This document shows, in pieces, positions 1-62,761 of a stretch of DNA of 64,000 bases (the first letter of the stretch is position 1; the number at the start of each line of letters is the position of its first letter). Source of the stretch: an uncultured Actinomycetota bacterium (GTDB taxonomy: Bacteria; Actinomycetota; Actinomycetes; Actinomycetales; Microbacteriaceae); assembly GCA_963839715.1 (NCBI GenBank), contig CAWIVX010000006.1:305616-369615 (forward strand), written 5' to 3'. The notes beneath the pieces were generated by a model. The model was given only the letters and a program-made list of their open reading frames with translations. It was not told the origin of the DNA and did no database searches. Position numbers and translations under genes: made by a program.

Positions 1-400
1 GGGTCTTGGGGGAGGACCGGTTGATCTCGTCTGCGATGACGATGTGCGCGAAGATCGCGCCCGGCTTGAACTCGAACTCGCGGTCGACCGGATTGAAGAC
101 GCTGACGCCGGTCACGTCACCCGGCAGCAGGTCGGGTGTGAACTGGATGCGGCGCACGGTCGCGTCGACCGAGGCAGCGAGCGCGCGGGCGAGCATCGTC
201 TTGCCGACCCCGGGCACATCTTCGATGAGCAGGTGGCCCTCAGCCAGCAGACACACCAGTGCGCTGCGCACCGCTTCGGGCTTGCCGTCGATCACCCGGC
301 CGACGGAGGCCAGGATGCCGTCCGTGACGCGCGCGAAGCTCTCCGCGGTCATCGCTCCCGGCGCGCTGGTCACGGCATCCGTCGTCGCTGTGTCTGCCAA
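1..400 (-). CDS. moxR: MoxR-family AAA+ ATPase (5' part; runs off the window start)
   Basis: Reverse translation gives [13 protein letters not shown] (Walker A), [15 protein letters not shown] and [12 protein letters not shown]. Start is TTG at 400 or ATG at 352. Confidence 0.9.
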
Positions 401-550
401 AAGCGCCCCCTGGATCAGCGTCCGCGGGCGTCGTCACCCACCTGTCGATCGTAACGTGGGCCGGTGCACAGTGGGCCTGGGAGATCGCTGGCTGCGGGTG
501 CGCGCGAACGGTTCCGCCCGGGGTCCGCGTGTGACCCGCCTCGTACCGGC

Positions 551-1021
551 ATGATGACACCCATGACCGACACCGCCCGGCGAACACGCATCACCCTCAT
601 CGCGCTGTTCGCCGGGGTGCTCCTGGTCGTGGTCGTCGCGCTGGTAGCCGTGTTCGCGCGGGGTGGCGCCGCACCACTGGATCCCGGCACGCCGGAGGGG
701 GTGGTGCAGCGGTATTCCCAAGCTCTCGTCGACGGCGACGTGGACACGGCGCTCACCTACGTCGTGCCCGAGATCGCCGATTCGTGCGTGCCCAGGTTCG
801 TGAGTGACGAAGACGTGCGTATCAGTGTGCTGGAGAGCACAGAGCGCGACGACACAGCGAACGTCCGTGTGCTCATCGTCACCGTGTACGGGACGGGGCC
901 GCTCGGCGTCGACCAGTACGAGGCCGAATCCGCCTTCACCCTCGCGAAGGTGGACGGCGACTGGCTGGTCGAGGTAGCCCCCTGGCGACTGGCGGCCTGC
1001 GAGGACATGGGGACGCTATGA
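551..1021 (+). CDS. Hypothetical protein with an N-terminal TM anchor and an extracytoplasmic NTF2/lumazine-binding-like domain
   Basis: Hydrophobic segment LIALFAGVLLVVVVALVAVF, then PEGVVQRY..AL.DGD and C-terminal F.L.KVDGDWLV. Overlaps the next start (ATGA). Confidence 0.7.
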   Translation: MMTPMTDTARRTRITLIALFAGVLLVVVVALVAVFARGGAAPLDPGTPEGVVQRYSQALVDGDVDTALTYVVPEIADSCVPRFVSDEDVRISVLESTERDDTANVRVLIVTVYGTGPLGVDQYEAESAFTLAKVDGDWLVEVAPWRLAACEDMGTL

Positions 1022-2639
1022 CCACTCGCGTGCAATCCGGCGGACGCGCGCAGTCGGCGGTGCGCCGCGTCATCCTCTTCGTGATCCTCTTCGCCCTCGT
1101 CGCCGTGGGGGCGACGGGCATCAGCGGCCTGCTGGAGCGGGTGCTCGGCGCCACCAGCGTGATCGTCTCGAACGATGCCGCACTCGCTCTCTCGCTCGCC
1201 TACGCACTCATCGCGGGTCCGCTGGCGGGTGTCCTGTGGTGGTGGGAGCGCCGCAGACTGATCGCCGACCCGTCGGAAAGAGCATCGCTTGCGTGGGCCC
1301 TGTATGTGACGGCGATGTCGCTGACCTCACTGATCGTCTCGACCACAGCGTTGGTCGGCGCAGCCGCGGCGGGCATCGATGGGGAATGGCGGCCCGCGGA
1401 GCTGTCGACCGGAATCGTCTGGCTCGCCGTATGGTTCTGGCACCGTCACATGCGCCGCAGCGCGGCCACAGCGCCCACGCGTCTCGTCGACGTGCCCACC
1501 GGACTGGGTGCGATCTACGGGCTCGCTGTGGCCGCGTCCGGTGCGATCACCCTCATCGCTGTCGTTCTCACGCAGGCGATCCTCGGCGGCTCGATCGTCA
1601 TCGTCGGATCGCAGTACTGGCTCACCATCGCTCTGCAGAGCCTGCTCTGGTGCGCGATGGGCACGCTGGTGTGGTGGTGGCACTGGTTCAGGGAACAGGC
1701 GAAGGACGCGCCCGGTGGTTTCGCCTCCGTGCTCGTGATCGTCGTGGTCGCGGCGGCCGCCGCGACCACTCTGTTCGCGATCGGGGGCGTGCTGCTGATC
1801 GCACTCCGACTCCTGTTCGACACCGATCCTGCGGCCGACATCGTGTCGGAGCTCGATGTGGCCCTTGCGGCCGCCCTCGTGGGCGCGATCGTCTGGGTGT
1901 ATCACGCGCATGTGCTCGCGAGCCGCTCCGCGAGAAGCCGTCGCGCCGCGCGACTCGTGGTCTCTGCCATAGCCCTCGTCGGTGCCGCGAGCGGCTTCGG
2001 AGTTGTTGTCAACTCGTTGCTGGCGACCTTCTCCGGCGCGCTCGTCGGCGACGACTCGCACACTGCTGCTGGGCGGCGTCAGTTCGCTCGTGGTCGGCGG
2101 CACGGCGTGGGCGATCGCCTGGCGACCGACGCGCGCGGTGGAGCCGGCGGAGGCCACCGATCCTGCACGACGCGTCTACCTCGTCGTGATCTTCGGCGCG
2201 AGCGCCGTCGTCGCGATCGTGACCCTCCTCATCATCGGCTTCCGGATCTTCGAGTTCGTCCTCGAGGTGGGGGGCTCGGATGGCTTCATCGAGCGTGTTC
2301 GCGCGCCGCTCGGCCTGCTGAGTTCGACGGCGGTGGTGTTCGCCTATCACTTCACGATCTGGCGCCGCGATCGATCGCATCGTGCCGCCGGCCGCACGCC
2401 GGCAGGTGATCGGCAAGGTCGTCGTGGTCAGTGCCGGCGATGTGACCGCCCTCACAGCGGCCATTCGCGCCGATACGGGGGCGGCGGTGTCGCTGTGGCC
2501 CGTAGCGGTGGGCACGCCCGGGGTGGTCGACGCCGATGCCCCCGCGGTGCTCGAGCTGCTGGCCGCGTCCGACGCACGCCGAGTGCTCGTGATCGCCGGT
2601 GAGAGCGGCGGTGTGCGGGTCATCCCGCTGGCCGAGTGA
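1018..2639 (+). CDS. Polytopic membrane protein, DUF5671-like repeats (apparent frameshifts near 2058 and 2398)
   Basis: Repeated TM units ending W.WH / VWVYH / FAYH and an RRVYL motif. The frame continues through ORFs 1018, 1982 and 2382. Confidence 0.7.
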
Positions 2640-2686
2640 CCAGACCGCGCTGAAGCGCGCCTCGGCGATCGGGTTAGACTTGGGGC

Positions 2687-2775
2687 AGCTCTCCGCGAGG
2701 CGGCATCCAGGCCAACTCCCCCAGGACGGAAACGTAGCAAGGGTAACCAGGCTCTGCCGGGTTCGCGGAGAGTCT
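2687..2775 (+). ncRNA. ffs: Signal recognition particle RNA (small bacterial 4.5S type)
   Basis: Closing stem CTCTCCGCG/CGCGGAGAG, domain IV core CCAGG-ACG-GAAA-CGT-AGCAAGG, -10 TAGACT at 2675-2680, T-rich tail. Confidence 0.88.
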
Positions 2776-2803
2776 TACTTTTTCTCGAGCCGTTCCGGAA
2801 TCC

Positions 2804-3484
2804 TCACCGGGCGAACGGACCGTCGATCGCCGCCCATTGCAGCAGCATGATGGTCTTCGCGTCCTGGATGCGGCCGTCGCGGATCATCGCGAGCGACTCG
2901 TCGAAGTCGAGCTCGACGACGTCGATGTCCTCGCCTTCGTGCGCGAGCCCGCCCCCGGCCCCCGTGCGTGAAGAGGCGTCGTACGCCGCCGCGAAGAAGT
3001 GGAGCCGCTCGGTGACCGATCCGGGACTCATGTAGACGTCGAAGACGTGCTCGAGCTCCCCGATCTGCACGCCCGTCTCCTCGGCCGTCTCCCGTCGGAT
3101 CGCCGTCGCGGGGTCGTCGTCGTCCAGGAGTCCCGCCGCGGTCTCGATCAGCATGCCGTCGGGGTGGTCGTTCACGTAGACCGGATAGCGGAACTGCCGC
3201 GTGAGCAGCACCGTGTGCAGGTCGCGGTTGTACAGCAGCACTGTGGCGCCGTTTCCCCGGTCATAGGTCTCGCGCTGCTGGCGGGTCCACACGCCGTCGG
3301 CGCCCTCGTACTCGAGGGTCGTGCGCCGAAGCACGTGCCACCCCGCAGCCAGAAGCTCAACGTCGACGACGCGCACGCGCGGATTCCCGGTCAGATCGCG
3401 GCCGATGCGGTCGAGTCCGGTACGGCCACGGTGATCGGGAACGTCGACTCCGGGGACGGATGCTGCGGATGCCTCGGCGCTCAT
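2804..3484 (-). CDS. nudK: NUDIX hydrolase, GDP-mannose pyrophosphatase NudK-like
   Basis: RETYDRGNGA, RQFRYP, Nudix box GLLD..DP..AIRRETAEETG, YMSPGSVTE, DAKT. Confidence 0.85.
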   Translation of the reverse strand: MSAEASAASVPGVDVPDHRGRTGLDRIGRDLTGNPRVRVVDVELLAAGWHVLRRTTLEYEGADGVWTRQQRETYDRGNGATVLLYNRDLHTVLLTRQFRYPVYVNDHPDGMLIETAAGLLDDDDPATAIRRETAEETGVQIGELEHVFDVYMSPGSVTERLHFFAAAYDASSRTGAGGGLAHEGEDIDVVELDFDESLAMIRDGRIQDAKTIMLLQWAAIDGPFAR

Positions 3485-3561
3485 GAACCGGAGCCTAGCG
3501 TCGGGCCAACGGCACCCGACGCGCATCGGCTCGCGCACGACGCGGCGCATAGGCTGTGCTC

Positions 3562-5706
3562 GTGGCGCAGAGCATCTTCATCACGTCGGCCGAGGGCCAT
3601 TCGGGGAAGTCCACCGTGGCTCTCGGAGTCCTTGAGGCGCTCAGTCACGCCACGCCCAAGGTCGGGGTGTTCCGTGCGATCGCGCGCTCGACCGTGGAGC
3701 GCGACTACGTCCTGGAGATGCTGCTCGCCCACGACGGCGTCGATCTCGCGTACGAGGACTGTGTGGGCGTGACGTACGACGACGTGCGTACGGACCCGGA
3801 TGCCGCGCTCGCCACGATCGTCGAACGATTCAAGGCCGTGGAGGCGCAGTGCGACGCCGTGGTCGTGGTCGGCAGCGACTACACGGACGTCGGCAGTCCG
3901 GCGGAGCTCGCCTACAACGCCCGGATCGCCGCGAACCTGGGCGCGCCGGTGCTGCTGGTGCTCGGCGGTCGCTCCGCGCAGGACGAGACCCAGCCCGAGC
4001 TTCTGGGCTCGTCGCTGCCCCGCACGGCCGCCGAGATGGGTCAGATCGCCGACCTCGCGCTCACCGAGCTGGCCCACGAGCGGGCCGAGCTGTTCGCCGT
4101 CGTCGCGAACCGCGCCGATCCCGACACCGCCGCCGACGCGATCGCCGCGATCGAGCGGTCTCTGGCGGGTCACGTCCGGCTGGCGCCGAGCACGGTGCCC
4201 GTGTGGGCGATCCCCGAGGACCGCTACCTCGTCGCTCCGTCCATGCGCGGCATCATGCGCTCGGTCGACGGCGAGCTGCTCTCCGGTGATCCTGATCGAC
4301 TCACCCGCGAGGCGCTCGGAGTCGTGGTCGCCGGCATGTCGATGGTCAACGTGCTGCCGCGTCTTCTCGAGGGCGCCGTGGTCATCATCCCCGCCGACCG
4401 CTCCGAAGTGCTGCTCGCGACCCTGCTCGCGAACGCCTCGGGCACATTCCCGTCGATCTCGGGCATCGTGCTCAACGGCGGCTTCGAACTGCCCGAGCCC
4501 GTGGCGCGGCTGCTGGACGGCCTGGGCTCCAATGTGCCGATCGTCACGACCGACCTCGGGACCTACGAGACGGCCGTGCGCATCATGAGCACCCGCGGCC
4601 GCCTGGCCGCAGATTCGCAGCGCCGCTACGACACCGCGCTGGCCCTCTTCGAGACGAACGTCGACACCGACGAGCTCCTGCGTGCGTTCGGCGTCGCGCG
4701 GGCGACCGTCGTCACGCCGCTCATGTTCGAGTTCCAGCTCATCGAGCGAGCGCGGTCGGTCCGCAAGCGCATCGTGCTGCCCGAAGGCGACGACGACCGG
4801 GTGCTCCGCGCGGCCGCCACCGTGCTCAAGCGCCGCATCGCCGACCTCGTCATCCTCGGCGAGCCGTTCGAGGTGCGCTCCCGCGCGGTCGAGCTCGGCA
4901 TCGACATCCAGCGCGCCGAGGTGCTCTCGCCGTTCGATCCCGTGCACGTCGCGAAGTTCGCGGACGAGTACGCGCGACTCCGGGCCCACAAGGGCGTCAC
5001 GCTCGCGCAGGCATCCGACTCCGTCACCGACGTGTCGTACTTCGGCACGATGATGGTGCATCTCGGCCTGGCCGACGGCATGGTCTCCGGCGCCGCGCAC
5101 ACGACGGCCCACACCATCCGCCCGGCATTCGAGATCATCAAGACCAGGCCCGGGGTCTCGGTGGTCTCGTCCGTGTTCCTCATGGCACTCGCCGATCGCG
5201 TCCTCGTCTACGGCGACTGCGCCGTGATCCCCGATCCCACGTCGGAGCAGCTCGCCGACATCGCGATCTCCTCCGCCGCGACGGCGACGCAGTTCGGGAT
5301 CGAGCCCCGCATCGCGATGCTGTCGTACTCGACGGGGGAGTCGGGCTCGGGCGCTGAAGTCGAGAAGGTCCGCGCGGCGACCGCGCTCGTGCGCGAGCGG
5401 GCGCCGCAGCTGCTGGTGGAGGGCCCGATCCAGTACGACGCCGCCGCCGACGTCGCCGTGGCGGCGGCCAAGATGCCGGGGTCGGCCGTGGCCGGCCGTG
5501 CGACGGTGTTCATCTTCCCCGACCTGAACACCGGCAACAACACGTACAAGGCGGTGCAGCGCTCAGCCGGTGCCGTCGCGATCGGCCCGGTGCTGCAGGG
5601 CCTGAACAAGCCGATCAACGATCTCTCACGCGGTGCACTCGTGGACGACATCGTCAACACGATCGCGATCACCGCAATCCAGGCGCAGGGCGAGGTGCCG
5701 GCGTGA
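3562..5706 (+). CDS. pta: Phosphate acetyltransferase (long AAA_26-DRTGG-PTA form)
   Basis: SGKS N-terminus, IVLPEG, GMVSGA.HTT, FIFPDLNTGNNTYKAVQR, DLSRG. Confidence 0.96.
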   Translation: MAQSIFITSAEGHSGKSTVALGVLEALSHATPKVGVFRAIARSTVERDYVLEMLLAHDGVDLAYEDCVGVTYDDVRTDPDAALATIVERFKAVEAQCDAVVVVGSDYTDVGSPAELAYNARIAANLGAPVLLVLGGRSAQDETQPELLGSSLPRTAAEMGQIADLALTELAHERAELFAVVANRADPDTAADAIAAIERSLAGHVRLAPSTVPVWAIPEDRYLVAPSMRGIMRSVDGELLSGDPDRLTREALGVVVAGMSMVNVLPRLLEGAVVIIPADRSEVLLATLLANASGTFPSISGIVLNGGFELPEPVARLLDGLGSNVPIVTTDLGTYETAVRIMSTRGRLAADSQRRYDTALALFETNVDTDELLRAFGVARATVVTPLMFEFQLIERARSVRKRIVLPEGDDDRVLRAAATVLKRRIADLVILGEPFEVRSRAVELGIDIQRAEVLSPFDPVHVAKFADEYARLRAHKGVTLAQASDSVTDVSYFGTMMVHLGLADGMVSGAAHTTAHTIRPAFEIIKTRPGVSVVSSVFLMALADRVLVYGDCAVIPDPTSEQLADIAISSAATATQFGIEPRIAMLSYSTGESGSGAEVEKVRAATALVRERAPQLLVEGPIQYDAAADVAVAAAKMPGSAVAGRATVFIFPDLNTGNNTYKAVQRSAGAVAIGPVLQGLNKPINDLSRGALVDDIVNTIAITAIQAQGEVPA

Positions 5707-6947
5707 GCGTCGTCCTGGTGGTCAACAGCGGCTCGTCGTCGTTCAAATACCAGTTGATCGACATGGATGCCGCCACCGTCCTCGCGTCGGGACTCGTGGA
5801 GCGGATCGGCGAGCGATCCACCGACGGAGGGCCGGTCGGGCGCTCATCGCACACGGTCTTCGCTCCGCCTCGCGACGGCCCGGCGCCCGCCATGCTGAAC
5901 GCGACCTACGACCGCGAGCTCCCGATCCCCGACCACACCGCGGGCTTCGCCGTGATGCTCGAGGCGTTCGCGCAGAACGGGCCCTCCCTGGACGACCACG
6001 CTCCGACGGCGGTCGGGCATCGCGTCGTCCACGGCGGCGCCCGCTTCTTCGAGCCCACGCTGATCTCGCCCGCGGTCGAGGCGGGCATCGACGAGCTCTC
6101 GGTGCTCGCGCCCCTCCACAATCCCGCCAACCTGGCCGGCATCGTCGCGGCGAAGAAGGCCTTTCCCGACGTGCCGCACGTGGCGGTGTTCGACACGGCG
6201 TTCCATCAGACGCTTCCGCGGGCGGCCTACACGTACGCGATCGACGCGGAGCTGGCGGCATCCCACAGCATCCGCCGGTACGGCTTCCATGGAACGTCGC
6301 ACAAGTTCGTCAGCGAAGCAGCCGCCGCCTTCCTCGGGAGGCCGCTGGCGGAGCTGAAGCAGATCGTGTTCCATCTCGGCAACGGCGCATCGGTCACGGC
6401 GATCGACGGCGGGCGCTCGGTGGAGACCTCGATGGGCCTCACACCGCTCGAGGGCCTCGTGATGGGCACCCGCTCCGGTGACATCGACCCCGCGGTGCTG
6501 TTCCACCTGGCACGGCGCGCCGACATGTCGATCGACGACCTCGACGATTTGCTCAACAAGCGGAGCGGCCTGCTCGGCCTCTCGGGATACTCCGACTACC
6601 GCGACATCCGCGCCGCCATGGAGGCCGGCGACGACAGCGCGATGCTGGCCTTCGAGGTGTACGTGCACCGGCTGCGCGCCTACGCCGGTGCCTACCTCGC
6701 ACAGCTGGGTGGCGTGGACGTCATCTCCTTCACGGCCGGAGTGGGGGAGAACACCCCACGTGTGCGCGCGGCCGCCCTCGAGACGCTCGGCTTCGCCGGC
6801 GTGGAGATCGACCCGGCACGCAACGAAAGCCCGGGTCGCGGCATCCGCCTCATCTCGACGGACGCCTCGCGCGTGGCCGTGCTGGTCGTGCCGACCGACG
6901 AGGAGATGGAGATCGCCCGTCAGAGTCTGCAGGCGGCGCGCGCCTGA
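5703..6947 (+). CDS. ackA: Acetate kinase
   Basis: VNSGSSSFKY, GHRVVHGG, APLHNP, FDTAFH, RYGFHGTSH, HLGNGAS, FTAGVGEN. Confidence 0.97.
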   Translation: MSVVLVVNSGSSSFKYQLIDMDAATVLASGLVERIGERSTDGGPVGRSSHTVFAPPRDGPAPAMLNATYDRELPIPDHTAGFAVMLEAFAQNGPSLDDHAPTAVGHRVVHGGARFFEPTLISPAVEAGIDELSVLAPLHNPANLAGIVAAKKAFPDVPHVAVFDTAFHQTLPRAAYTYAIDAELAASHSIRRYGFHGTSHKFVSEAAAAFLGRPLAELKQIVFHLGNGASVTAIDGGRSVETSMGLTPLEGLVMGTRSGDIDPAVLFHLARRADMSIDDLDDLLNKRSGLLGLSGYSDYRDIRAAMEAGDDSAMLAFEVYVHRLRAYAGAYLAQLGGVDVISFTAGVGENTPRVRAAALETLGFAGVEIDPARNESPGRGIRLISTDASRVAVLVVPTDEEMEIARQSLQAARA

Positions 6948-7059: not shown

Positions 7060-7860
7060 GTGGCCCACGACCCCCTGCCCGATCTCGCCTCGTACGACGC
7101 CGTGCTGTTCGATCTGGACGGTGTGCTGACGCCCACCGCCGAGGTGCACATGCACGCCTGGCAGACGATGTTCGAGGAGCTGTTCGCGGCCTGGGACATC
7201 GAGCCGCCGTACACCGAGCGCGACTACTTCGACTACCTCGACGGCAAGAAGCGCTATGACGGCGTCGCGTCGCTGCTGCGCAGCCGCGACGTCGAGGTGC
7301 CGTGGGGCGATCCGTCGGACGATCCCTCCGTCGACACGGTCTGCGGCATCGGCAATCGCAAGAACGAGGTGTTCTCCCGCGTGCTGCGTGCCGAGGGCAT
7401 CGTCGCGTATCCCGGATCGGTCGCGCTCCTGGACGAGCTCGAGGCCGCCGGCATCCCCACCGCCGTCGTGTCGAGCTCGAAGAACGCCGACGAGGTCCTG
7501 CGGTCGGCCGGCCTGCGCGAGAGGTTCACGGTCGTGATGGACGGCGTGATCGCCGAGCGCGACCACCTCGCGTCCAAGCCCGCCCCCGACGTGTTCGTCG
7601 AGGCGGCGCGGATGCTGGGGGTCGACCCCGCACGCAGTGTCGCCGTCGAGGACGCCATCAGCGGTGTGCAGTCCGCCGCGGCGGGCGGGTTCGCGCTCGT
7701 GATCGGCGTGGATCGGGGAACGGGTCCCGACGAGCTGCGCAGCGCCGGCGCTCACCTCGTCGTCGAGGATCTCGCCGAACTCCTCAGCAGACCCGGGCCC
7801 GGCGCTTCCGCGTCAGAGCCCCCCGCACCCGCCTCCGATGCGCAGGAGAAGTCCGAATGA
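7060..7860 (+). CDS. HAD-IA hydrolase, beta-phosphoglucomutase family
   Basis: FDLDGVLT, VSSSKNA, KPAPD, VEDAISGV. Coupled to a GH65 gene. Start approximate. Confidence 0.85.
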   Translation: MAHDPLPDLASYDAVLFDLDGVLTPTAEVHMHAWQTMFEELFAAWDIEPPYTERDYFDYLDGKKRYDGVASLLRSRDVEVPWGDPSDDPSVDTVCGIGNRKNEVFSRVLRAEGIVAYPGSVALLDELEAAGIPTAVVSSSKNADEVLRSAGLRERFTVVMDGVIAERDHLASKPAPDVFVEAARMLGVDPARSVAVEDAISGVQSAAAGGFALVIGVDRGTGPDELRSAGAHLVVEDLAELLSRPGPGASASEPPAPASDAQEKSE

Positions 7861-10376
7861 TCGACCGCGACCGGTTCCCCGTCGACCCCTGGTGCCTCAT
7901 CGAGGACGAGTGCTCGCTCGATGATGTGGCAGTCACCGAGACGCTGTTCTCCGTCGGGAACGGCTACCTGGGTCTGCGCGGCAATCACATCGAGGGCCGC
8001 TTCGCCCACGAGCACGGCACCTTCGTCAACGGCTTCCACGAGACCTTCCCGATCCGCCACGCCGAGCAGGCCTACGGATTCGCCGAGGTCGGGCAGACGA
8101 TCATCAACGCGCCCGACGCGAAGGTCATGCGGGTCTACGTCGACGACGAGCCGCTCTCGCTCGACGTCGCGGACGTGCGCGAGTACACCCGCACGCTCGA
8201 CATGCGCGCCGGCGTGCTGCGGCGCCGGGTGCGGTGGACGACGCCGTCGGGCAAGGACGTCCTGATCGAGGACGACCGCCTGGTCTCGTTCGAGGAGAAG
8301 CACCTCGCGGTGCTGCGGCTCGAGGTCACCGTCCTGAACGCCGACGCCCCCGTGACGATCAACTGCCAGGTGATCAACCGGCAGGACGGCGAGGACGTCT
8401 ACGGCGGAAGCCCGACCCCCACGCGGAAGGGCGGCTTCGACCCCCGCAAGGCGGAGCGCATCCAGGAGCGGGTGCTGCAGCCGGAGGAGTACTGGCAGGA
8501 GGGTGGCCGGTCCGTCCTTTCGTACCGGGTGACCGACTCGGGCATGACCGCGGCTGTGGTCGCCGATCACCTGATCGACACGGAGAACGAGTACAACGCC
8601 CGCACGCTGGTCGAGCCCGACATCGCCAAGAACGTGTTCCGCGTGCAGGCCAAGGCCGGCGTGCCCATTCGCGTGACCAAGCTCGTGAGCTACCACACGT
8701 CGCGCGGCGTACCGGCCCGCGAACTCGTCGACCGCTGCCGCCGCACCCTCGACCGCGTCGAGTTCGAGGGCGTGGAGCGTCAGTACGAGCGCCAGCGCAT
8801 CTGGCTCGACGGCTTCTGGGAGCGCTCGGACGTCTGCATCGGTGGCCAAGACGACCTGCAGCAGGCCACCCGCTGGTGCCTGTTCCAGCTCGCCCAGGCC
8901 GCGGCTCGCGCCGACGGGCAGGGAGTCCCCGCGAAGGGCGTCACCGGGTCGGGCTACAGCGGCCACTATTTCTGGGACACCGAGATCTACGTCCTCCCGT
9001 TCCTCGCCTACACGACGCCGCTCTGGGCGCGCAACGCGATCCGGATGCGGTATCTCATGCTTCCGGCTGCCCGTCGCCGTGCCCAGCAGCTCAACGAGCA
9101 CGGGGTGCTCTTCCCGTGGCGCACGATCAACGGCGAAGAGGCGTCGGCTTACTACGCGGCCGGAACCGCGCAGTACCACATCAACGCCGACGTGAGCTTC
9201 GCGCTGGCGAAGTACATCCGAGCCACGGGCGACACCGAATTCCTCCACCGCGAGGGCGTCGACATCGCGGTCGAGACCGCACGCCTGTGGGCGACCCTCG
9301 GCTTCTGGCGGACGAGCGACAGCGACGGAGAGGAGTCGTTCCACATCCACGGGGTCACCGGCCCGGACGAGTACACGACGGTCGTGAACGACAACCTGTT
9401 CACGAACGTCATGGCCCGGTTCAACCTGCGCTTCGCGGCGCGCACCGTGCGCGAGATGGCCGAGGATGACCCCGAGGCGTACCGGCTCATGGTGGACCGG
9501 CTGCATCTGGACTCCTCCGAGGCGGAGTCGTGGGATCGCGCGGCCGAGGCCATGCACATCCCGTTCAGCCCGGCCCTCGGCATCCACCCGCAGGATGCCG
9601 TGTTCCTCGAGCGTGAGGTCTGGGATCTCGAGCACACGCCGTCCGACCAGCGGCCGCTGCTGCTGCACTTCCACCCGCTCGTGATCTACCGCTACCAGGT
9701 GCTCAAGCAGGCCGACGTGGTGCTCGCGCTGTTCCTGCAGGGCAATCACTTCTCCGACGAGGACAAGCTCGCCGACTTCGAGTACTACGACCCGCTGACC
9801 ACCGGCGACTCCACCCTGTCGGCGGTCGTGCAGGCCATCCTGGCCGCGGAGGTCGGCTATCAGGACCTCGCGCTGGAGTACTTCCGGCAGTCGATCTTCG
9901 TCGACCTCGGCGACCTGCACCACAACGCCGCCGACGGCGTGCACGTCGCCTCGGCGGGCGGCGTCTGGACGGCGCTCGTGTGCGGTTTCGGCGGGATGCG
10001 GGATCACTTCGGCGAGCTGTCGTTCGATCCCCGACTGCCCGCGGACTGGCCCGAGCTGTCGTACGCGCTCCACTGGCACGGCACGCCGCTGCGCGTCACC
10101 CTGACCCGCGACACGCTGCGGGTCTCGGCGGGCGACGAGGGCGAGCCGCTCGTTTTCAGCGTGCGCGGCTCCGCGTACGCGTTGGGCCCCGGCGAAGAGG
10201 TCGTGGTGCCGCTGGCCGACCAGGGCCCTGTGATCTCGGGCCGTCCCTCGCTCAAGCAGTTCGCCGACGTCCGCCGGGAGGACGGCACGCTGCTGTCGGC
10301 ATCCGTCCCCACCGTCACGACGACGATCCCGATCATCGGTGCGGCCGCCGACGTCGAGCACGGCGTCGACGCCTGA
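7857..10376 (+). CDS. Glycoside hydrolase family 65 (trehalose/maltose/kojibiose-type phosphorylase)
   Basis: ETLFSVGNGYLGLRG, KGVTGSGYSGHYFWDTE, GPDEY, KQADVV, DSTLS. Confidence 0.93.
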   Translation: MIDRDRFPVDPWCLIEDECSLDDVAVTETLFSVGNGYLGLRGNHIEGRFAHEHGTFVNGFHETFPIRHAEQAYGFAEVGQTIINAPDAKVMRVYVDDEPLSLDVADVREYTRTLDMRAGVLRRRVRWTTPSGKDVLIEDDRLVSFEEKHLAVLRLEVTVLNADAPVTINCQVINRQDGEDVYGGSPTPTRKGGFDPRKAERIQERVLQPEEYWQEGGRSVLSYRVTDSGMTAAVVADHLIDTENEYNARTLVEPDIAKNVFRVQAKAGVPIRVTKLVSYHTSRGVPARELVDRCRRTLDRVEFEGVERQYERQRIWLDGFWERSDVCIGGQDDLQQATRWCLFQLAQAAARADGQGVPAKGVTGSGYSGHYFWDTEIYVLPFLAYTTPLWARNAIRMRYLMLPAARRRAQQLNEHGVLFPWRTINGEEASAYYAAGTAQYHINADVSFALAKYIRATGDTEFLHREGVDIAVETARLWATLGFWRTSDSDGEESFHIHGVTGPDEYTTVVNDNLFTNVMARFNLRFAARTVREMAEDDPEAYRLMVDRLHLDSSEAESWDRAAEAMHIPFSPALGIHPQDAVFLEREVWDLEHTPSDQRPLLLHFHPLVIYRYQVLKQADVVLALFLQGNHFSDEDKLADFEYYDPLTTGDSTLSAVVQAILAAEVGYQDLALEYFRQSIFVDLGDLHHNAADGVHVASAGGVWTALVCGFGGMRDHFGELSFDPRLPADWPELSYALHWHGTPLRVTLTRDTLRVSAGDEGEPLVFSVRGSAYALGPGEEVVVPLADQGPVISGRPSLKQFADVRREDGTLLSASVPTVTTTIPIIGAAADVEHGVDA

Positions 10377-35182: not shown

Positions 35183-35286
35183 GGCCGAACATTCGATTCT
35201 GGCATTGCGACACCCGACTCACCCCCGAACTGCGGTGTCGCTCGTGGCGGCATCCCATTCCCCCCATGGGATGCCGCCTTCTCTTT
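35183..35286 (+). ncRNA. 6C RNA (B11-like sRNA)
   Basis: Two hairpins with C-rich loops: GCGACACC..ACCCCC..GGTGTCGC and GGCGGCATCCCAT-TCCCCCC-ATGGGATGCCGCC plus a pyrimidine tail. -10 TATGCT at 35170-35175. Location before the Tad cluster matches mycobacterial B11. Confidence 0.8.
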
Positions 35287-35383
35287 CTCCGCCGCTCCTC
35301 CCCAGCGGTCGGTGGGGAAGGCCCGTCCACCGAGCGCCCTGATCTCGCGCGCCGCCTCGGGAGCCGGACCTAGCTTCGGATGC

Positions 35384-36466
35384 ATGTCCGAACGCTTCGT
35401 CGTCCAGCAGCGAGCGGTCGCCGAGCGCGGTCCCGGGAGCCCGGCGCGGCCCGCTGCCGAGACGTCCTCCGGTGCAGCGGCCGGGGATGCGCGCCGTCCC
35501 GCAACGAGCCGGCGGAGGGTCAGCGCCCGGCATCCCACCCTCGCCCCGCTGTCGCGCTACCTCGACGACCCGGAGGTGACCGACCTCTTCGTCAACGGCG
35601 CCGCCGGCCTGTTCGTCGACCGCGGCTCGGGTGCGGAACCGGCGCCGGAGTGGCGCGCGCGAGAGGAGGATGTGCGCGACCTCGCGGTGGCACTGATCAG
35701 CCTCGGCGATCGCCACATCGACGACGCGACTCCCTGCGTGGACGTTCGGCTCGAGGGCGGCATCCGCGTGCACGCGGTGCTTCCGCCGGTCGCGGCCGAG
35801 GGAACGGTCATCTCGATCCGCGTTCCGCGGCTCGACGGTCCCGACCTCGAGGTGCTCGAGTCGACGGGCATGTTCGACGCCGTGACCCGGACCCGTCTGC
35901 AGGAGCTCGTGAGCGCGCGAGAGAACCTGCTGATCACCGGGGCGGCGGGTGCGGGCAAGACCACTCTGCTGTGCGCGCTCCTGGGGTTCGCCGCACCGTC
36001 CGACCGGATCGTCACGATCGAAGACGTCGCCGAACTGCGGCTGGATCACCCGCATCACGTGCGGCTCGAAGCGCGTCAGGCCAACCTCGAGGGTGCCGGC
36101 GCCATCGGACTTGCGCGGCTCGTGCGCGAGGCGCTGCGCATGCGGCCGGATCGACTGGTCGTGGGGGAATGTCGCGGCGAAGAGGTGCGGGAGCTGCTGT
36201 CGGCTCTGAACACCGGACACGACGGGGGCGCCGGAACCCTGCATGCGAACTCCCTCGCCGATGTGCCGGCCCGGCTCGAGGCGCTCGGCGCGCTCGCCGG
36301 CCTCGACGACCGGGCGCTGGCCAGGCAGGTGGCCTCGGCCATCGGCCACGTGCTGCACGTCGGCCGCGACCCGGACGGCGCACGCCGGCTGATCGCAGCC
36401 GGGCGACCGGTCATCGGGGCAGAGGGCCGGCTCCACATGGAGGAACTGCCGTGGCCCGCACGCTGA
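35384..36466 (+). CDS. tadA: Tad pilus assembly ATPase TadA/CpaF
   Basis: GAAGAGKTT, TIEDVAEL, ALRMRPDRLVVGECRG, NTGHDGGAGTLHAN. Confidence 0.93.
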   Translation: MSERFVVQQRAVAERGPGSPARPAAETSSGAAAGDARRPATSRRRVSARHPTLAPLSRYLDDPEVTDLFVNGAAGLFVDRGSGAEPAPEWRAREEDVRDLAVALISLGDRHIDDATPCVDVRLEGGIRVHAVLPPVAAEGTVISIRVPRLDGPDLEVLESTGMFDAVTRTRLQELVSARENLLITGAAGAGKTTLLCALLGFAAPSDRIVTIEDVAELRLDHPHHVRLEARQANLEGAGAIGLARLVREALRMRPDRLVVGECRGEEVRELLSALNTGHDGGAGTLHANSLADVPARLEALGALAGLDDRALARQVASAIGHVLHVGRDPDGARRLIAAGRPVIGAEGRLHMEELPWPAR

Positions 36467-37383
36467 CGATGCCCGCCGTCGCCGATACGGTCCTCAAGCT
36501 CGCCGTTCTGCTTCAAACGGGGGTCGCGCCTGCCCGCGCCTGGTCGCACCTCGCCGAAGCCGGAGACGACCACGCCGCACGCGTCTGCGCCGCGGTCGCC
36601 GGTGGCACTCCTCTCTCCCGTGCGATCGCCGCCGACGCCTCGCCGGCAACAGCAGGGCGCGGGGGCCGCGCCGCACGCCTCACCGCCGATGCCCAGAAGG
36701 CATCCTGGAGCGACGTGTCGGCGGCATGGCACGTGGCGACGGCTGTCGGTGCACCGCTGGCCGAGAGTCTGCGCTCTCTGGCCGTCGCGCTGCGCGACGG
36801 CCAGGAGGCGGCCGACGAGGTGCGCATCGCCCTCGCCGAGCCCGCGGCGACGGCGAAGCTGATGGGATGGCTGCCTCTCGTGGCGGTGGCGCTCGGGGTG
36901 GCGCTCGGATTCGACACGTTCGGCACGCTCCTGAGCAACCCGATCGGCATCGCCTGTCTCGTTCTGGGTGCCGCTCTGATCATCGGGGCTCAGCGGTGGA
37001 ACGCCGCTCTTGTGCGGCGCGCGCGGTCGGGCGACGGCGTGCCGGGCCTGGACGCCGAGCTGCTCGCGATCGCGTTGAGCGGCGGTGTGTCCATCGATCG
37101 TGCGCGGGCTCTCGTCGCCGAGGCGACGGGTGCGCAGGCGGATGCCGCGACGGAGGCGGTGCTCAGCCTGTCGCGGACGGCGGGGGTGCCGGCGGTGGAG
37201 CTGCTGCGGGCGTCGTCGGCGCTCGCCCGGCACCAGGCGCGCGTGGACGGCCGCCTGCGCGCCGCGCGCCTGTCCACCCGACTCCTCCTTCCTCTCGGGG
37301 TCTGCACGCTGCCGGCGTTCCTGCTGCTCGGCGTCGCCCCGATGCTTCTGAGTGTCATGACCACGGTTCCGCTGTCCTTCTGA
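36451..37383 (+). CDS. Type II secretion F-family platform protein, apparent TadB-TadC fusion
   Basis: First T2SSF unit (GAPLAESL...ATAKLMGWLP), then a second (ALSGG.S...LLLPLGVCTLPAFLLLGVAP). GGAGG precedes GTG 36451. Confidence 0.8.
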   Translation: MARTLTMPAVADTVLKLAVLLQTGVAPARAWSHLAEAGDDHAARVCAAVAGGTPLSRAIAADASPATAGRGGRAARLTADAQKASWSDVSAAWHVATAVGAPLAESLRSLAVALRDGQEAADEVRIALAEPAATAKLMGWLPLVAVALGVALGFDTFGTLLSNPIGIACLVLGAALIIGAQRWNAALVRRARSGDGVPGLDAELLAIALSGGVSIDRARALVAEATGAQADAATEAVLSLSRTAGVPAVELLRASSALARHQARVDGRLRAARLSTRLLLPLGVCTLPAFLLLGVAPMLLSVMTTVPLSF

Positions 37384-37434
37384 CCATGCCCGCCGATCCA
37401 TGCCCCATCCGTGCCCACCGATCCGTGCCCACCG
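37384..37434 (+). repeat. Short imperfect tandem repeat (unit ATCCGTGCCCACCG, about 3.5 copies)
   Basis: Exact copies at 37407-37420 and 37421-37434, degenerate copies at 37384-37406. Confidence 0.7.
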
Positions 37435-37453
37435 AACCCTGGAAGGAAATCCC

Positions 37454-37648
37454 ATGTCACTGCCCCGACTCACCCACCGCCGTTCCGCGCGGCTCTTCAC
37501 CGACGAGACCGGCGCCGCCACCGCCGAGTATGCGATCGCGACGATGGCGGCTGTCGCGTTCGCCGGCCTCCTGGTCGTCATCATGCGCAGCGACGAGGTG
37601 CGCGGCATCCTCACGGATCTGGTCCGTCGCGCGCTGACCGTCGCATGA
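37454..37648 (+). CDS. Flp-type pilin (DUF4244)
   Basis: Prepilin site DETG|AATAEY followed by a hydrophobic helix. SD AAGGA. Confidence 0.88.
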   Translation: MSLPRLTHRRSARLFTDETGAATAEYAIATMAAVAFAGLLVVIMRSDEVRGILTDLVRRALTVA

Positions 37649-37986
37649 TGCGGCGCGGGCTCGGCGACGACCGCGGTTCGGTGGTCGCCGAGTTCGCGGT
37701 GGCCCTTCCGGCGGTGGCGCTGGTTCTGCTCCTGGGCGCCGGCACCCTGGGCGCATGCGCCCGCCACGTGAGACTGCAGGACGGCGCGGCCGACGCCGCC
37801 CGCCTGGTCGCACGGGGGGAGTCCCACGCGCGCGCGAGTGCGGCCGTCGCGGCCGGCGTGTCCGGCGCCTCGGTCGTCGTCGGCGACCGGGGAGACCTCG
37901 TGTGCGTCACCGCGACGGCGCCGGCATTGGGCTCCGTGCCGATCATGCTGAGCGCGGTCAGCTGCGCGCTGGACGGGGGGCTGTGA
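37645..37986 (+). CDS. TadE-family minor pilin
   Basis: DDRG|SVVAEFAVALP, DAARLVARG. Confidence 0.85.
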   Translation: MMRRGLGDDRGSVVAEFAVALPAVALVLLLGAGTLGACARHVRLQDGAADAARLVARGESHARASAAVAAGVSGASVVVGDRGDLVCVTATAPALGSVPIMLSAVSCALDGGL

Positions 37987-38306
37987 TGGCGGGCACGATC
38001 CTGTCGGTCGGCGTCGTGGTGTGCACGGCCACGCTCGCGGTGGGACTCGCCACCGCCGGGTCGGCCGCCGCCTTCGCGCAGCGACTGACGGGCGTCGCGG
38101 ATGCCGCCGCGCTGGCGGCCGCGGATGCGGCATCCGGGGCGGTCCTGGGCGAACCCTGCGCCCGTGCGGCGGAGGTGGCGTCGGCATCGGGTGCCGGGCT
38201 GGCCGCCTGCACGCTCGACGAGCTGGTCGCCACGGTGACGGTGACGGGGTCGTTCGGACGCGTCGCGGGCTCGGCCTCGGCGAGAGCGGGACCGCCCGAC
38301 CCGTGA
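37986..38306 (+). CDS. Rv3654c-family TadE-like protein
   Basis: ADAAALAAA, C..A..VA...GA.L..C, C-terminal ARAGPP. Confidence 0.85.
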   Translation: MAGTILSVGVVVCTATLAVGLATAGSAAAFAQRLTGVADAAALAAADAASGAVLGEPCARAAEVASASGAGLAACTLDELVATVTVTGSFGRVAGSASARAGPPDP

Positions 38307-54316: not shown

Positions 54317-54317
54317 G

Positions 54318-55332: not shown

Positions 55333-55337
55333 GAGCG

Positions 55338-56530: not shown

Positions 56531-56548
56531 GGTGAACGGAAGGTGAAC
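56531..56548 (-). promoter_or_regulatory. PHO box (PhoP/RegX3-type direct repeats)
   Basis: GTTCACC twice, 11 bp apart, upstream of -10 TACGGT (56494-56499) of pstS. Confidence 0.8.
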
Positions 56549-56584
56549 GCGGCCGGGCAGATGCGCCTGTGCCGGCGGCTCGCG

Positions 56585-57521
56585 TCAGCGTTTCGGAGCG
56601 TGCGTCTCGATCGCGACGATGCCCGATCCGGGGTTGTCCGATGACAGGTGCACGACGGAGAACGCGCCCGTCTCGAGCGCGGACGCGCTGCCGAGGTAGG
56701 AGCCGCGGAGTGTCCCTGTCGCCAGGGCGATCTCGGCGAGGATCTCGGGCAGCACGGGGCCGTGGCTGCACAGCACGGCGGGCTTTCGCGCGCTCACCCG
56801 ATCGCCGACGACCGTGCGGGCATCGGACTGCCCTTCCTCCCAGGCGTCCTGGCTGATGAGCGGCGATCTGTCGATCTTCCGTCCGAGCGCCGATGAGAGC
56901 GGGGCCACGGTCTTGACGCAGCGCGTGGCCGGGCTGGAGATGATCTTGCGGACCCCGAAGGCCAGCAGGGGACCCGACGATCGCGTTGGCCTGCTTCTTG
57001 CCGCGCGGGGACAGCGGCCGCGCGGAGTCCTTGCCGTTCCAGTCCTCGCGCCCGACCGCCTTGCCGTGGCGGAGGGCGATGATCGGGAAACGTGCGCAGC
57101 ACGCCCTCGTCGACGAGACGGGTGAAAGTCTCGATGATCTCCACGTCGACGGGATAGCTCAGACGCGACGTCGCCTTCTTGAGGGGCACCCACTCGAGCG
57201 CGGCGATCTCCTTGTTGGGCACGAAGGCCGAGGCGCGGATCGCGGCGTCCGTCGCCTCCGCCGCCCAGTAGTGCACGATCTTCTGCCGCTTGTTCGGCAT
57301 GTGATACCGGGAGACGCCGACGGGCACGCCGAGGCTCACGCGGATGCCGGTCTCCTCGAAGACCTCCCGAGCAGCCGTCTCGGCGAGCATCTCGCCCGGG
57401 TCGACCTTGCCCTTGGGAAGCGTGACGTCGCGATAGCGGGTGCGGTGGATGAGCAGCACGAGGATCTTCTCCTCGACGATGCGCCAGAGCACGCCGCCCG
57501 CCGCGTAGACGGCGGTCTCGG

Positions 57522-57525
<4 letters not shown>
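56585..57525 (-). CDS. NUDIX + histidine-phosphatase fusion (MutT1-like); apparent frameshifts near 57090 and 56972
   Basis: [17 protein letters not shown]...AARE..EETG, LRHGKA, SSP..RC, CSHG. Confidence 0.85.
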
Positions 57526-59688
<2,163 letters not shown>

Positions 59689-59757
59689 CCCCTCATCATT
59701 GCAGGGTGAAGTGACGTGCGTGTGAACGCATCCGCCGCAGCGATCCGGCGGGCCGGG

Positions 59758-60456
59758 TCACGCGCCGGTGCGCTCCCGGGGGGCAGGCAGCTGGTCGTCC
59801 TCATAGACGTTGAAGCGGTAGCCGACGTTGCGGACGGTGCCGATCAGCTGCTCGAGGTCGCCGAGCTTGGCGCGGAGCCGTCGCACGTGGACATCGACGG
59901 TGCGCGTCCCGCCGAAGTAGTCGTATCCCCACACCTCGCTGAGCAGCTGCTCGCGGGTGAAGACGCGGGAGGGATGAGTGGCGAAGAAGTGCAGGAGCTG
60001 GAACTCCTTGTACGTCAGATCCAGGGGTTTGCCGTGCACCTTGGCGGAGTACGACGACTCGTCGATCGTGATCCCGGAGGTCTGGATGCGCGTGGAGACC
60101 TGGTCCTTCGTCATGCGGCCGATCGCCAGACGCACGCGCGCGTCGACCTCGGCCGGACCGGCCGTGACGAGGATGACATCGTCCACGCCCCAGTCCGTGG
60201 AGACGGCGGTGAGCCCGCCCTCGGTGACCACGAGCATGAGGGGGGCGTCGAGTCCCGTGGTGTTCAGGATCTTGCAGAGCGACTTCGCACCCACGAGGTC
60301 GACACGGGCGTCGACGAAGATGATGTCGGCACTGGGAGCGTTCACCAGCTGCGCAGGTTCGGCCGGGATCTGCCGCACTCGATGGCTCAGCAGCTCGAGC
60401 GAGGGCAGGACAGGACCGCCACCATGTGCTGAGCTCAGAACGAGAAGCTGTGCCAA
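59758..60456 (-). CDS. glnR: Orphan OmpR-family response regulator, GlnR-like
   Basis: Atypical receiver ([15 protein letters not shown]) and w[40 protein letters not shown] start after GGAGG. Confidence 0.85.
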
Positions 60457-60604
60457 GAACGCCGTCCTCCCGGCGCAGGGGGAGCGCCGTCGGACCAGTT
60501 TAGGGCTTCGGAGCGGATCGATTCGATTCGGGTGTCCTCGCGATTCGTCCGCGCCGGCGCGGGGCACGCGTGCGTCGCAGGCTCTTCTGCGGGAGAATGG
60601 CGGT

Positions 60605-60895
60605 GTGACCGTCCCCGAACTCGCCCCCCGCCGCACGTTCGGCGGTGTGATCGCCGTCTGGGTGGTCGCCGCTCTGATCGGCATCTCGATCGGCCTGTTC
60701 GTTCCTTCCGAGTGGCGCGCGGCGTGGCTCACGGTCGGGTTCGGCGGCTGCCTCGTCCTCGCCTTCGCGATCCAGCTGTGGTTCGGCCGGTCGCAGGGAT
60801 TCACCGATCGTGTCGCAGCCAGCGTGCTCGGAGCGCTGCTGGTGATGGGCTTCATCAGCCTCGGCTTCGGGCTGTCGTCGATCGTTCCCGGCTAG
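60605..60895 (+). CDS. Small 3-TM hypothetical protein
   Basis: Three hydrophobic helices, FAIQL, GF..R. Confidence 0.7.
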
Positions 60896-60904
60896 ACTTG
60901 CCGC

Positions 60905-61018
60905 ATGGATCTCGTCGCGCTCGAACTGTTCTATCTGGGCCTTCTCGGGCTCGCGTCGCTCGCGATCGCGTTCGTGTCCGTCGTCGTGCTCAAGAACCTC
61001 TATCGCGGCCAGCGCTGA
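60905..61018 (+). CDS. 37-aa single-TM microprotein
   Basis: MDLVALELFYLGLLGLASLAIAFVSVVVLKNLYRGQR*. -10 TAGACT 6 nt upstream. High GC3. Confidence 0.72.
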   Translation: MDLVALELFYLGLLGLASLAIAFVSVVVLKNLYRGQR

Positions 61019-61032
61019 CCGGCGGTCGCGTC

Positions 61033-61656
61033 GTGTTCGACCTTCCGACGGATCTGCCCGCCGACCTCGCCCCGCTGTCGTGGCTGATCGGCGTCTGGGA
61101 GGGCACCGGCGTCATCGACTACGAGGTGGGCGACCACCGCTACGCGGGTGAGTTCCTCCACCGCGTGAGCTTCAGCCACGACGGCGGCAACTATCTGAAC
61201 TACTCCGCGAGCGCCTGGCTCCTCGGCGACGCGCACGCCTCCGAGGAGGGTGAGAGCGGGCGGACTCCGCTCGTCGCGGAGGTGGGGTACTGGCGCCTGT
61301 CCCGCGCAGGCGACGGACGCCGAAGCCGGGCCCGGTCTGCTGCCACCCCTCGAGCCGCCCGTGGCGCGCTCGGCCGACGACGTCGAGCAGCTGCGCAACC
61401 CCGAGGGCGGTTTCGACATCGAGGTGTCGGTCATCCACTCCGACGGCGTGAGCGAGCTGTACCTCGGGCAGATCCGCGGGCCGCGGATCGACTGGCCACG
61501 GATGCCGTCGTGCGAACGGCCGGCACGAAGGTGTACGCGGCGGCCACGCGCATGTACGGCCTCGTCGATGCCCATCTGCTCTGGGCGTGGGACATCGCGG
61601 CGCTCGGTCGCGACCTCGGTTCGCACGCGTCGGCGCGTCTCGCGCGGGTGGACTGA
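61033..61656 (+). CDS. Nitrobindin/FABP-like protein (DUF1794, Rv0813c-like); compensating frameshifts near 61308 and 61492
   Basis: PLSWLIGVWEG.G, E.GYWR, RMYGLV, SH.SA.L.R. Confidence 0.85.
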   Translation: MFDLPTDLPADLAPLSWLIGVWEGTGVIDYEVGDHRYAGEFLHRVSFSHDGGNYLNYSASAWLLGDAHASEEGESGRTPLVAEVGYWRLSRAGDGRRSRARSAATPRAARGALGRRRRAAAQPRGRFRHRGVGHPLRRRERAVPRADPRAADRLATDAVVRTAGTKVYAAATRMYGLVDAHLLWAWDIAALGRDLGSHASARLARVD

Positions 61657-62761
61657 TGGCCGGGATCTTCGCTCGCGTACCGGGCGCCGTGGTGGACGAG
61701 ACCGGCCTGCAGCACCTCGGCAGCCCGCTCGGCGAACAGCGGGCGCTCGCCGCGGGGCGCGCGCGTGGCACCTCTCGGCGATCGTTCGGTCCTGGCCGTG
61801 CCGGGCGAGGACAGGCTGTCATGGCTCGACTCGCTCACCTCGCAGGGCCTCACCCGCCTCGCGCCGGGCGAGAGCACCGAACTGCTGGTGCTCGACCCGC
61901 ACGGGCACGTCGAGCACGCGGCATCCGTCCTCGACGACGGCGAGACGACGTGGCTCATCGTGGATCGAGCGGATGCCGAGGGGCTGCTGTCCTGGCTGCG
62001 CAAGATGCGCTTCCGTCTGCGCGTCGACCCGCGGGATGCCGATCAGGAGTACGCCGTGATCGGCGGGGCGCGCGCCGCGATCGCGGCCGTCGATGCGGCG
62101 GCGCCCGCGGGACTGCCGCTCGTGTGGACCGACCCCTGGCCGCGCGTATCGGTCGGCGGCCACGGGTACGCGACCGTCGACCCGCACCCGGCCGCCGGGC
62201 GCGATTGGGCCGAGGCGATCGTGACTCGCGCCGAGGAGCAGCGGATCGCCGACGCCGCAGCACAGGGCGAGATCGCCCTCGCCGGGCTCGTCGCGGTCGA
62301 AGCTCTCCGGGTCGCGCGCATGGCGCCCGCGGTGGTCGACGGAGGTCGACGACCGGGCGCTCCCGCACGAGCTGGACTGGCTCCGAACCGCGGTGCACCT
62401 GGAGAAGGGCTGCTATCGCGGCCAGGAGACCGTCGCCAAGGTGCACAATCTCGGTCATCCGCCCCGCCGCATCGTGGCGCTCCAACTCGATGGGAGTGAC
62501 TCGCTGTCTGCCGTCGCACGGCGACGAGGTGTTCGCGGGAGAGAACGCCGTCGGCGTGGTCACATCGGCGGCCCTTCACTTCGAGGAGGGCCCGATCGCG
62601 CTGGCGGTCGTGCGCCGCAGCACCCCGACCGACGCGCCGCTGCTCGGTCCGCACAGCCGACGGCGACATCGTCGGCGGCGCAGGAGGTCATCGTCCCGCC
62701 CGAGGCCGGAGCCACCGCCAACGTCCCCCGTCTTCCCCGGCTCGGGCGCCGAGCCGGCTGA
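61656..62761 (+). CDS. ygfZ: Folate-binding protein YgfZ; several apparent frameshifts
   Basis: G.DRLSWL, LDPHG.VEH, VHLEKGCYRGQETVAKV, GPIALA. Confidence 0.88.

Follow-up and report, generated by a model that had tools for sequence, protein, structure and literature searches.

A hyperabundant, nonpolar GGAT-centered word in Microbacterium, with dialects in Microbacteriaceae and a possible role as a self-DNA tag

A stretch of 64,000 nucleotides (nt) of a Microbacterium genome (contig CAWIVX010000006.1; referred to below as the window) contained a highly iterated short word, GGATGCCG, that is written into double-stranded DNA in both orientations, in all reading frames, and in noncoding sequence, where it overrides codon preference and shifts peptide usage. 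Individual copies are kept by a sustained, selection-like force, and the word is the local dialect of a series of hyperabundant GGAT-centered words in Microbacteriaceae. By analogy with the DNA uptake sequence (DUS) and uptake signal sequence (USS) of bacteria such as Neisseria and Haemophilus and with highly iterated palindrome 1 (HIP1) of cyanobacteria, the word may be a tag of self-DNA with a putative reader that acts at uptake or recombination; this reading is held tentatively, at somewhat short of an even chance. The assembly that contains the window is a 62% complete metagenome-assembled genome (MAG) of 2.76 Mb in six contigs, with 69.5% GC. TopA and its neighbors assigned the source organism to Microbacterium, with soil MAGs as the nearest matches.

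The window held 85 copies of GGATGCC or its reverse complement, GGCATCC (44 on the forward strand and 41 on the reverse strand), with 73 in called genes and 12 in noncoding DNA. Dinucleotide-preserving shuffles (n = 100) produced 15.6 ± 3.8 copies, with a maximum of 25. A first-pass annotation, made by eye, had reported about 84 copies (44 and 40) where about 15 were expected; its counts were judged correct, as were all ten of its example coordinates. The full 8-mer, GGATGCCG or CGGCATCC depending on the strand, accounted for 72 of the 85 copies (8.9 expected under an order-2 Markov model), and 37 copies reached CGGATGCCG. Across the genome, the 7-mer GGATGCC was counted 3,781 times and the 8-mer, which represents the core word, 3,225 times (about 1.17 per kb), compared to 320 to 520 expected under order 1 to order 3 Markov models, a 6- to 10-fold excess. 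High-order Markov nulls, which had been proposed as a check, left GGATGCCG as the top word, and its family ranked first at every word length (k) from 5 to 9, maximal-order models included. Genome-wide, the base at position +8 of GGATGCC was G in 85% of copies and that at position −1 was C in 54%, and no information was found in the flanks beyond positions −1 to +9. Because flank conservation went no further, GGATGCCG was considered a word rather than a repeat element, and a dispersed repeat of the repetitive extragenic palindrome (REP) or miniature inverted-repeat transposable element (MITE) type was rejected. None of the one-letter neighbors of GGATGCCG was depleted in genome-wide counts.

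The relationship of the word to coding sequence was examined with approximate gene calls from a home-made codon-usage log-odds scorer, which was trained on the genome and covered about 80% of its bases. When synonymous codons were permuted within each gene, a procedure that keeps proteins, dipeptides, and codon usage, 1,021 ± 23 coding copies of GGATGCCG remained genome-wide, compared to 2,937 observed; the excess, which the first-pass annotation would have given up as a signal had it disappeared under such a shuffle, survived. All six frames were enriched (1.4- to 14-fold), and the strongest were those that need rare codons (xxG-GCA-TCC, 14-fold; xxG-GAT-GCC, 4.3-fold). The 73 in-gene copies of the window included 25 in the frame xxG-GAT-GCC, with a rare Asp codon, 20 in the frame xxG-GCA-TCC, with a rare Ala codon, and 22 as GGC-ATC-C, in agreement with the earlier remark that many copies use disfavored codons. 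Densities of GGATGCCG were 1.34 per kb in coding DNA and 1.39 per kb in noncoding DNA. Sites at which the protein permits the 8-mer were occupied in 24 to 73% of cases, compared to 0.8 to 32% expected from codon usage; for example, Arg-His-Pro was spelled CGG-CAT-CCN in 59% of cases (4.7% expected). Read as mutation-selection balance, the occupancy odds ratios of about 6 to 40 would correspond to a scaled advantage of roughly 2 to 4 per site. The proteome was also skewed, with the tripeptides RHP, RMP, GMP, and GCR about 1.6 to 2.4 times commoner than the reversed peptides; distortion of peptide usage is also known for USS. An artifact of codon, dipeptide, or dinucleotide usage is therefore extremely improbable and was refuted by the shuffles, by site occupancy, and by codon retention inside the word (see below): it would suit the Gly-Ile frame GGC-ATC-C, in which preferred codons are used and the shuffle accounted for 583 of 832 copies, but the synonymous shuffle yielded only about a third of all coding copies, rare-codon frames were enriched 4- to 14-fold, coding and noncoding densities were equal, and other high-GC families of the same order were at baseline and did not match the excess, a comparison that the first-pass annotation had named as decisive.

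Copies of the word were conserved well above background, by a factor of 2 to 3 over other 8-mers. The window was collinear with two relatives (82% and 80% nucleotide identity), and 59 to 61% of its 8-mer copies were identical in the relative, compared to 22 to 28% of all or composition-matched 8-mers. The Asp codon GAT was retained in 77 to 88% of cases inside the word and in 30 to 35% outside it (P = 2e-4 and P = 4e-6), and the Ala codon GCA was retained in 50% inside and 13 to 15% outside. Noncoding copies were retained in 9 of 11 and 6 of 9 cases, compared to about 37% for other noncoding 7-mers. Copies also turned over. Thirteen orthologous genes were compared in as many as about 80 Microbacterium species, the number varying by gene; of 120 motif columns, 62 had the word in just one or two species, and in no column did it exceed 70%. 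Three-way presence patterns revealed lineage-specific copies in each of three genomes. Conservation together with turnover argues for a sustained force that both creates and keeps copies.

The two orientations were balanced across the genome (1,653 and 1,572 copies), and every 50-kb bin was near 1:1. The strand heterogeneity (chi-square of 45 on 57 degrees of freedom) thus gave no replichore polarity, in a genome with very weak GC skew. The lack of strand bias noted in the window therefore held genome-wide, which argues against polar signals of the Chi or FtsK-orienting polar sequence (KOPS) type, and a KOPS-type architecture motif was rejected on this ground. Coverage of GGATGCCG was even along all contigs, and spacing was overall close to Poisson (coefficient of variation, 1.08). 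At short range, pairs in the same orientation occurred at 0.27, 0.55, and 0.76 of expectation at distances of under 30 bp, 30 to 100 bp, and 100 to 200 bp, respectively, with slight depletion up to 1 kb. The arrangement of GGATGCCG followed by CGGCATCC was enriched 2.9-fold below 30 bp, with start-to-start peaks at 6, 8, and 13 to 15, and no enrichment below 30 bp was found for the reverse arrangement. Many of the pairs at distance 14 formed a 9-bp stem with a tetraloop, and the density of close inverted pairs rose about 5-fold in the 80 nt that follow stop codons.

Genomes of Microbacterium contained about 630 to 4,400 copies of the word each, compared to about 150 to 250 copies of the reversed word. 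Counts in the Microbacterium oxydans/paraoxydans group were low, with an excess over the reversed word that was still 3- to 7-fold, and no replacement dialect was seen in 272 kb from this group. A wider comparison, as the first-pass annotation had suggested, covered 120 genomes from 95 genera of Microbacteriaceae, in which the excess over the reversed word ranged from none to about 30-fold; both dialects, in different genera, and wordless genomes were found. These family-wide ratios are only a rough guide, since in some genomes the control with the reversed word makes enrichment look larger than it is (in G104 the ratio was 10, yet 19 copies were present where 13 were expected in 100 kb). Unbiased word searches on 100-kb samples, in which related genomes are not independent, identified the dialects GGATCC (genomes G066 and G033), a GCAGGATCC type (G126 and G079, with CAGGATCC enriched 15- to 18-fold), GGATGCGC (G136, 11.7-fold), GGATGCG (G090), and GGATG[A/C]CC (G073). 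The word GGAGGCGC (G068, about 7-fold) may be a further dialect or a different signal. Samples from G081, G083, G057, G135, G138, G104, and G114 had no hyperabundant word, and no such word was found in four other families of the order, where only words built from preferred codons were enriched. In a streamlined family member with a 1.4-Mb genome and 51% GC (G037), an unrelated word, ACACCGAT(G), was about 10-fold enriched; it may likewise be a dialect or a different signal. A literature search found no published description of the word, and nothing of relevance on uptake sequences in Microbacterium or on methylomes.

The longest motif-free stretches of the genome coincided with low-GC blocks of accessory genes, including those for glycosyltransferases, a sugar epimerase, an LGFP wall protein, and oxidoreductases, as well as orphan open reading frames (ORFs). 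Depletion in acquired islands had been proposed as a check, and GGATGCCG was about 9-fold depleted in these blocks, where composition alone predicts about 30%. The lytic Microbacterium phage Franklin22 contained 5 copies (3.7 expected), compared to 18 to 23 copies in 22 kb (2.2 expected; 0.8 to 1.0 per kb) in the chromosome of its host species, Microbacterium testaceum, and in the temperate phage Min1 the word was at expectation. No prophage was found in the 62% complete source genome with capsid or portal models. Franklin22 (OK999979) was also without any GGATCC, of which about 31 copies were expected. This represents classic restriction-site avoidance, and GGATCC is one of the dialect words of the family.

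Hallmarks shared with DUS/USS and with HIP1, together with natural transformation in Micrococcus luteus, favor a self-DNA tag. Like DUS and USS, GGATGCCG is a short, nonpalindromic word that occurs about once per kb, equally on both strands and in genes and spacers against codon habits; it also shares with them a peptide skew, copies that are conserved yet turn over, dialects with a common core, scarcity in foreign DNA, and some inverted pairs downstream of genes. The DUS of Neisseriaceae, which likewise form dialects, are read by the minor pilin ComP (PMC3630211, PMC3868556). In Microbacterium, a putative sequence-specific protein would read the word, which would most likely mark own-lineage DNA for preferential handling at uptake or recombination of incoming DNA. 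DUS act in this manner in Neisseriaceae and USS in Pasteurellaceae, and the same has now been proposed for HIP1 in cyanobacteria. Copies would then build up by molecular drive, since a tagged fragment would enter the cell or recombine more frequently, and selection might or might not add to this. Potential uptake machinery is on hand in the form of a Tad/Flp pilus, ComEC, and DprA, and Flp-pilus-dependent natural transformation has been established in M. luteus, a member of the same order (PMC4322843). The earlier proposal of a genome-wide recognition signal thus stood insofar as the signal is nonpolar, acts at the DNA level, and is no by-product of coding, and the roles that it had listed (uptake, nucleoid binding, and methylation-linked repair) are all candidates.

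Several observations weigh against a self-DNA tag. Neither uptake bias nor natural transformation is documented for Microbacterium in the literature, and the 6- to 10-fold enrichment is below that of DUS/USS or HIP1. All 121 family genomes examined contained TadA, and no searched genome was without TadA, ComEC, or DprA; for ComEC and DprA, the search took in five wordless genomes. Because they are universal, these proteins are uninformative and lend no phyletic support, so that of the link to a Tad pilus drawn in the first-pass annotation the presence of the cluster was borne out and a phyletic association was not. Probing of gene families by single candidates found no receptor candidate. Copies in the same orientation avoid each other within about 200 bp, and opposite-orientation pairs do not all do so; a simple receptor for double-stranded DNA at uptake would not predict this orientation-dependent avoidance. 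Only 5.9% of the copies here lay in the 80 nt that follow genes and 79% were intragenic singletons, whereas terminators hold about half of the DUS/USS copies (bioRxiv 10.1101/2025.10.24.684340). Most inverted pairs of DUS/USS are likewise in terminators, but 51 of the 81 close inverted pairs here were located in called genes. The parallel with terminators that had been drawn from the window was retained in that pairs are denser downstream of genes, but it is far weaker than in DUS/USS. This weak association, together with the orientation-specific spacing, separates the word from classical uptake sequences and hints at a strand-aware reader. The system also differs from DUS/USS in its host, a Gram-positive actinobacterium with a Tad/Flp pilus rather than a type IV pilus, in the short-range avoidance among same-orientation copies, and in the 8-bp length of its word.

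A HIP-like word linked to methylation is an unlikely alternative, and one compatible with a role in transformation. The word would hold the target of a conserved methyltransferase, and methylation-dependent mismatch repair, or selection for epigenetic strand marking, would create or preserve the word. HIP1 (GCGATCGC) and the alternate HIPs are also hyperabundant octamers conserved within and between genes, with alternate words in some lineages, loss in others, and conserved orphan methyltransferases in the genomes (PMC4390886, PMC5861425, PMC13756078). For HIP1, whose function was long obscure, a link to transformation is now proposed, and work cited by PMC13756078 describes an enhancement of transformation by HIP1 that depends on methylation. 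Alternate HIPs track cognate methyltransferases in cyanobacteria (PMC4390886). An orphan, single-copy N6-adenine DNA methyltransferase of the beta class (PF01555, with DPPF...FAGSGTTG motifs), for which M.RsrI and CcrM are the nearest solved relatives, adjoins lplA and is syntenic across Microbacterium. It was found in 110 of 120 Microbacteriaceae genomes, including streamlined genomes of 0.9 to 1.6 Mb, with 70 to 83% identity in the catalytic half, and this strong conservation suggests a putative CcrM-like housekeeping role. The word contains exactly one A per strand, a one-strand mark on an asymmetric site would explain the separate spacing of each orientation, and the median excess of the word was lower in genomes without the lplA-linked enzyme (2.9 compared to 6.8, family-wide and uncorrected for phylogeny).

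However, words were found without the orthologue in G033 (GGATCC), G136 (GGATGCGC), and G090, and the orthologue was found without a word in G114. The enzyme is thus neither necessary nor sufficient, which leaves the methylation link unsupported. Within-genus pairs with and without the enzyme showed no difference in the word, and the lplA-linked methyltransferase was rejected as the reader because its weak association failed both in the 100-kb samples and in these pairs. All 5 of the word-bearing genomes examined had some PF01555 enzyme, as did 3 of the 5 wordless ones, and a reader from this family at large was rejected because no clean presence rule emerged. No methylome data were found in the literature. 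HIPs are palindromes, whereas GGATGCCG is asymmetric and, among the dialects, GGATCC alone is palindromic; the excess of HIP1 is 15- to 300-fold; and cognate methyltransferases track the word in cyanobacteria, whereas the conserved orphan enzyme here does not appear to do so. The Dcm/Vsr signature (CCWGG in Escherichia coli) is similar in that a process at the DNA level alters the abundance of short words independently of coding, but the effect here is far larger. Neither Vsr nor a C5 methyltransferase turned up in three complete genomes with a high density of the word, G012, G011, and G002 (2,400 to 4,300 copies each), and C-to-T neighbors of the word were mildly enriched rather than depleted. 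Dcm/Vsr short-patch repair was rejected, since copy number does not follow the occurrence of Vsr and C5 methyltransferases and no T variant is depleted.

A Chi-like signal for recombination or against nucleases, read on single-stranded DNA by a helicase-nuclease of the AdnAB type at two-ended breaks, appears decidedly unlikely. Repair of two-ended breaks would require both orientations, the orientation-specific spacing suggests a directional reader, and with very weak GC skew any replichore bias could be small. As with the Chi sites of RecBCD and AddAB, which are 5- to 8-mers, the word is G-rich and overrepresented, characteristic of core DNA, and scarce in phages and islands. All characterized Chi sites are nevertheless co-oriented with replication, whereas the word has no polarity, and Chi sites are not arranged in hairpin pairs, and no series of dialects in a single family is known for them. 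Searches of 13 Microbacterium genomes found RecC (PF04257) in none, and RecBCD-Chi was rejected for this reason and for the lack of polarity. Other Actinobacteria with AdnAB (four families sampled) show no such word, and AdnAB has no known Chi. Four of the eight further families of the order that were searched do have RecC.

That the word is bound by an abundant protein that associates with the nucleoid or structures the chromosome is very unlikely as well. Such a site would suit a conserved, nonpolar word that occurs about once per kb and covers all contigs evenly, and HIP1 has been interpreted in this way (PMC5861425). Known nucleoid proteins, however, use degenerate sites, for which an exact, asymmetric 8-bp word with dialects and orientation-specific spacing would be unusual; scarcity in phages and islands is not required by such a model, and no candidate protein was found. 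A similarly low probability is assigned to a functionless by-product of context-specific mutation or repair bias, with no reader of the signal. Neither a function nor a reader has been demonstrated, and the continuous variation in intensity from genus to genus is what a drifting bias might produce. Against this, the conservation of individual copies well exceeds background at synonymous and noncoding sites, no neighbor word is depleted, and 8-bp specificity with discrete switches of dialect would still require a sequence-specific protein.

Individual copies in the window illustrate the range of contexts (Table 1). The first-pass annotation had placed a copy inside the signal recognition particle (SRP) RNA and an inverted pair in the stem of a 6C RNA terminator; both were located, although the 6C-like RNA (33.6 bits, E = 0.008 in cmscan against Rfam 6C) scored below the gathering score of 47. 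The Tad/Flp pilus cluster that had been recognized from the letters was identified by Pfam. It is context and not part of the word, a candidate DNA uptake machinery that is universal in the family.

Table 1. Copies of the word and associated features in the window, with the lplA-linked methyltransferase
Feature	Position	Strand	Remarks
GGATGCCG copy	313..320	+	Partner CGGCATCC at 373-380
CGGCATCC (+ strand reading) inside SRP RNA gene 2684-2780	2701..2708	-	Rfam RF00169, 54.8 bits
Close inverted pair CGGCATCC-N6-GGATGCCG	9578..9600		Inside GH65 glycoside hydrolase gene 7857-10376
6C-like small RNA	35206-35282	+	Two C-rich hairpin loops; directly upstream of tadA
Inverted pair CGGCATCC...GGATGCCG	35248..35276		Stem of second (3') hairpin of 6C-like small RNA
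Tad/Flp-type pilus cluster	35312..38306	+	Pfam T2SSE, T2SSF, DUF4244; plus two small ORFs
TadA/CpaF ATPase	35312-36466	+	Pfam
TadB/C	36451-37383	+	Pfam
Flp-like DUF4244 pilin	37454-37648	+	Pfam
Pair GGATGCCG ... CGGCATCC, starts 29 bases apart	38099..38135		In last small ORF of Tad cluster (37983-38306); spelled with GAT and GCA-TCC codons
lplA-linked PF01555 methyltransferase	G000 contig C3:62893-64062 = L105:5891-7063	-	Outside window

Other words with unusual counts were also found in the genome. The hexamer TACGAT/ATCGTA was 5-fold depleted (122 copies compared to 602 expected), and several 8-mers with GTAC or CTAG were nearly absent; these words may be targets of restriction-modification systems. 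A second, weaker set of enriched 7-mers included AGCGCCT, AGCCGCT, and AGCGACT (1.7- to 1.9-fold under maximal-order Markov models).

Very few lineages are known to have words that tag self-DNA (DUS, USS, Chi, and HIP1), and each of these words has given a view of how bacteria distinguish self-DNA from foreign DNA. In a large actinobacterial family, a word that forms dialects would make sequence-biased transformation, its reader, and genus-level switches of specificity testable, and the contrast between word-bearing and wordless genera, along with five or more dialects, provides a comparative handle for the reader. Practical uses would include flagging foreign DNA in Microbacteriaceae, binning MAGs, and possibly improving genetic transformation. 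In its most specific form, which is possible but doubtful, Microbacteriaceae would have a DNA uptake sequence system with genus-level dialects, in which a putative receptor, the Tad/Flp pilus, and ComEC would bias natural transformation of these soil and plant bacteria toward their own lineage. If so, this uptake sequence system would be the first in Gram-positive Actinobacteria.

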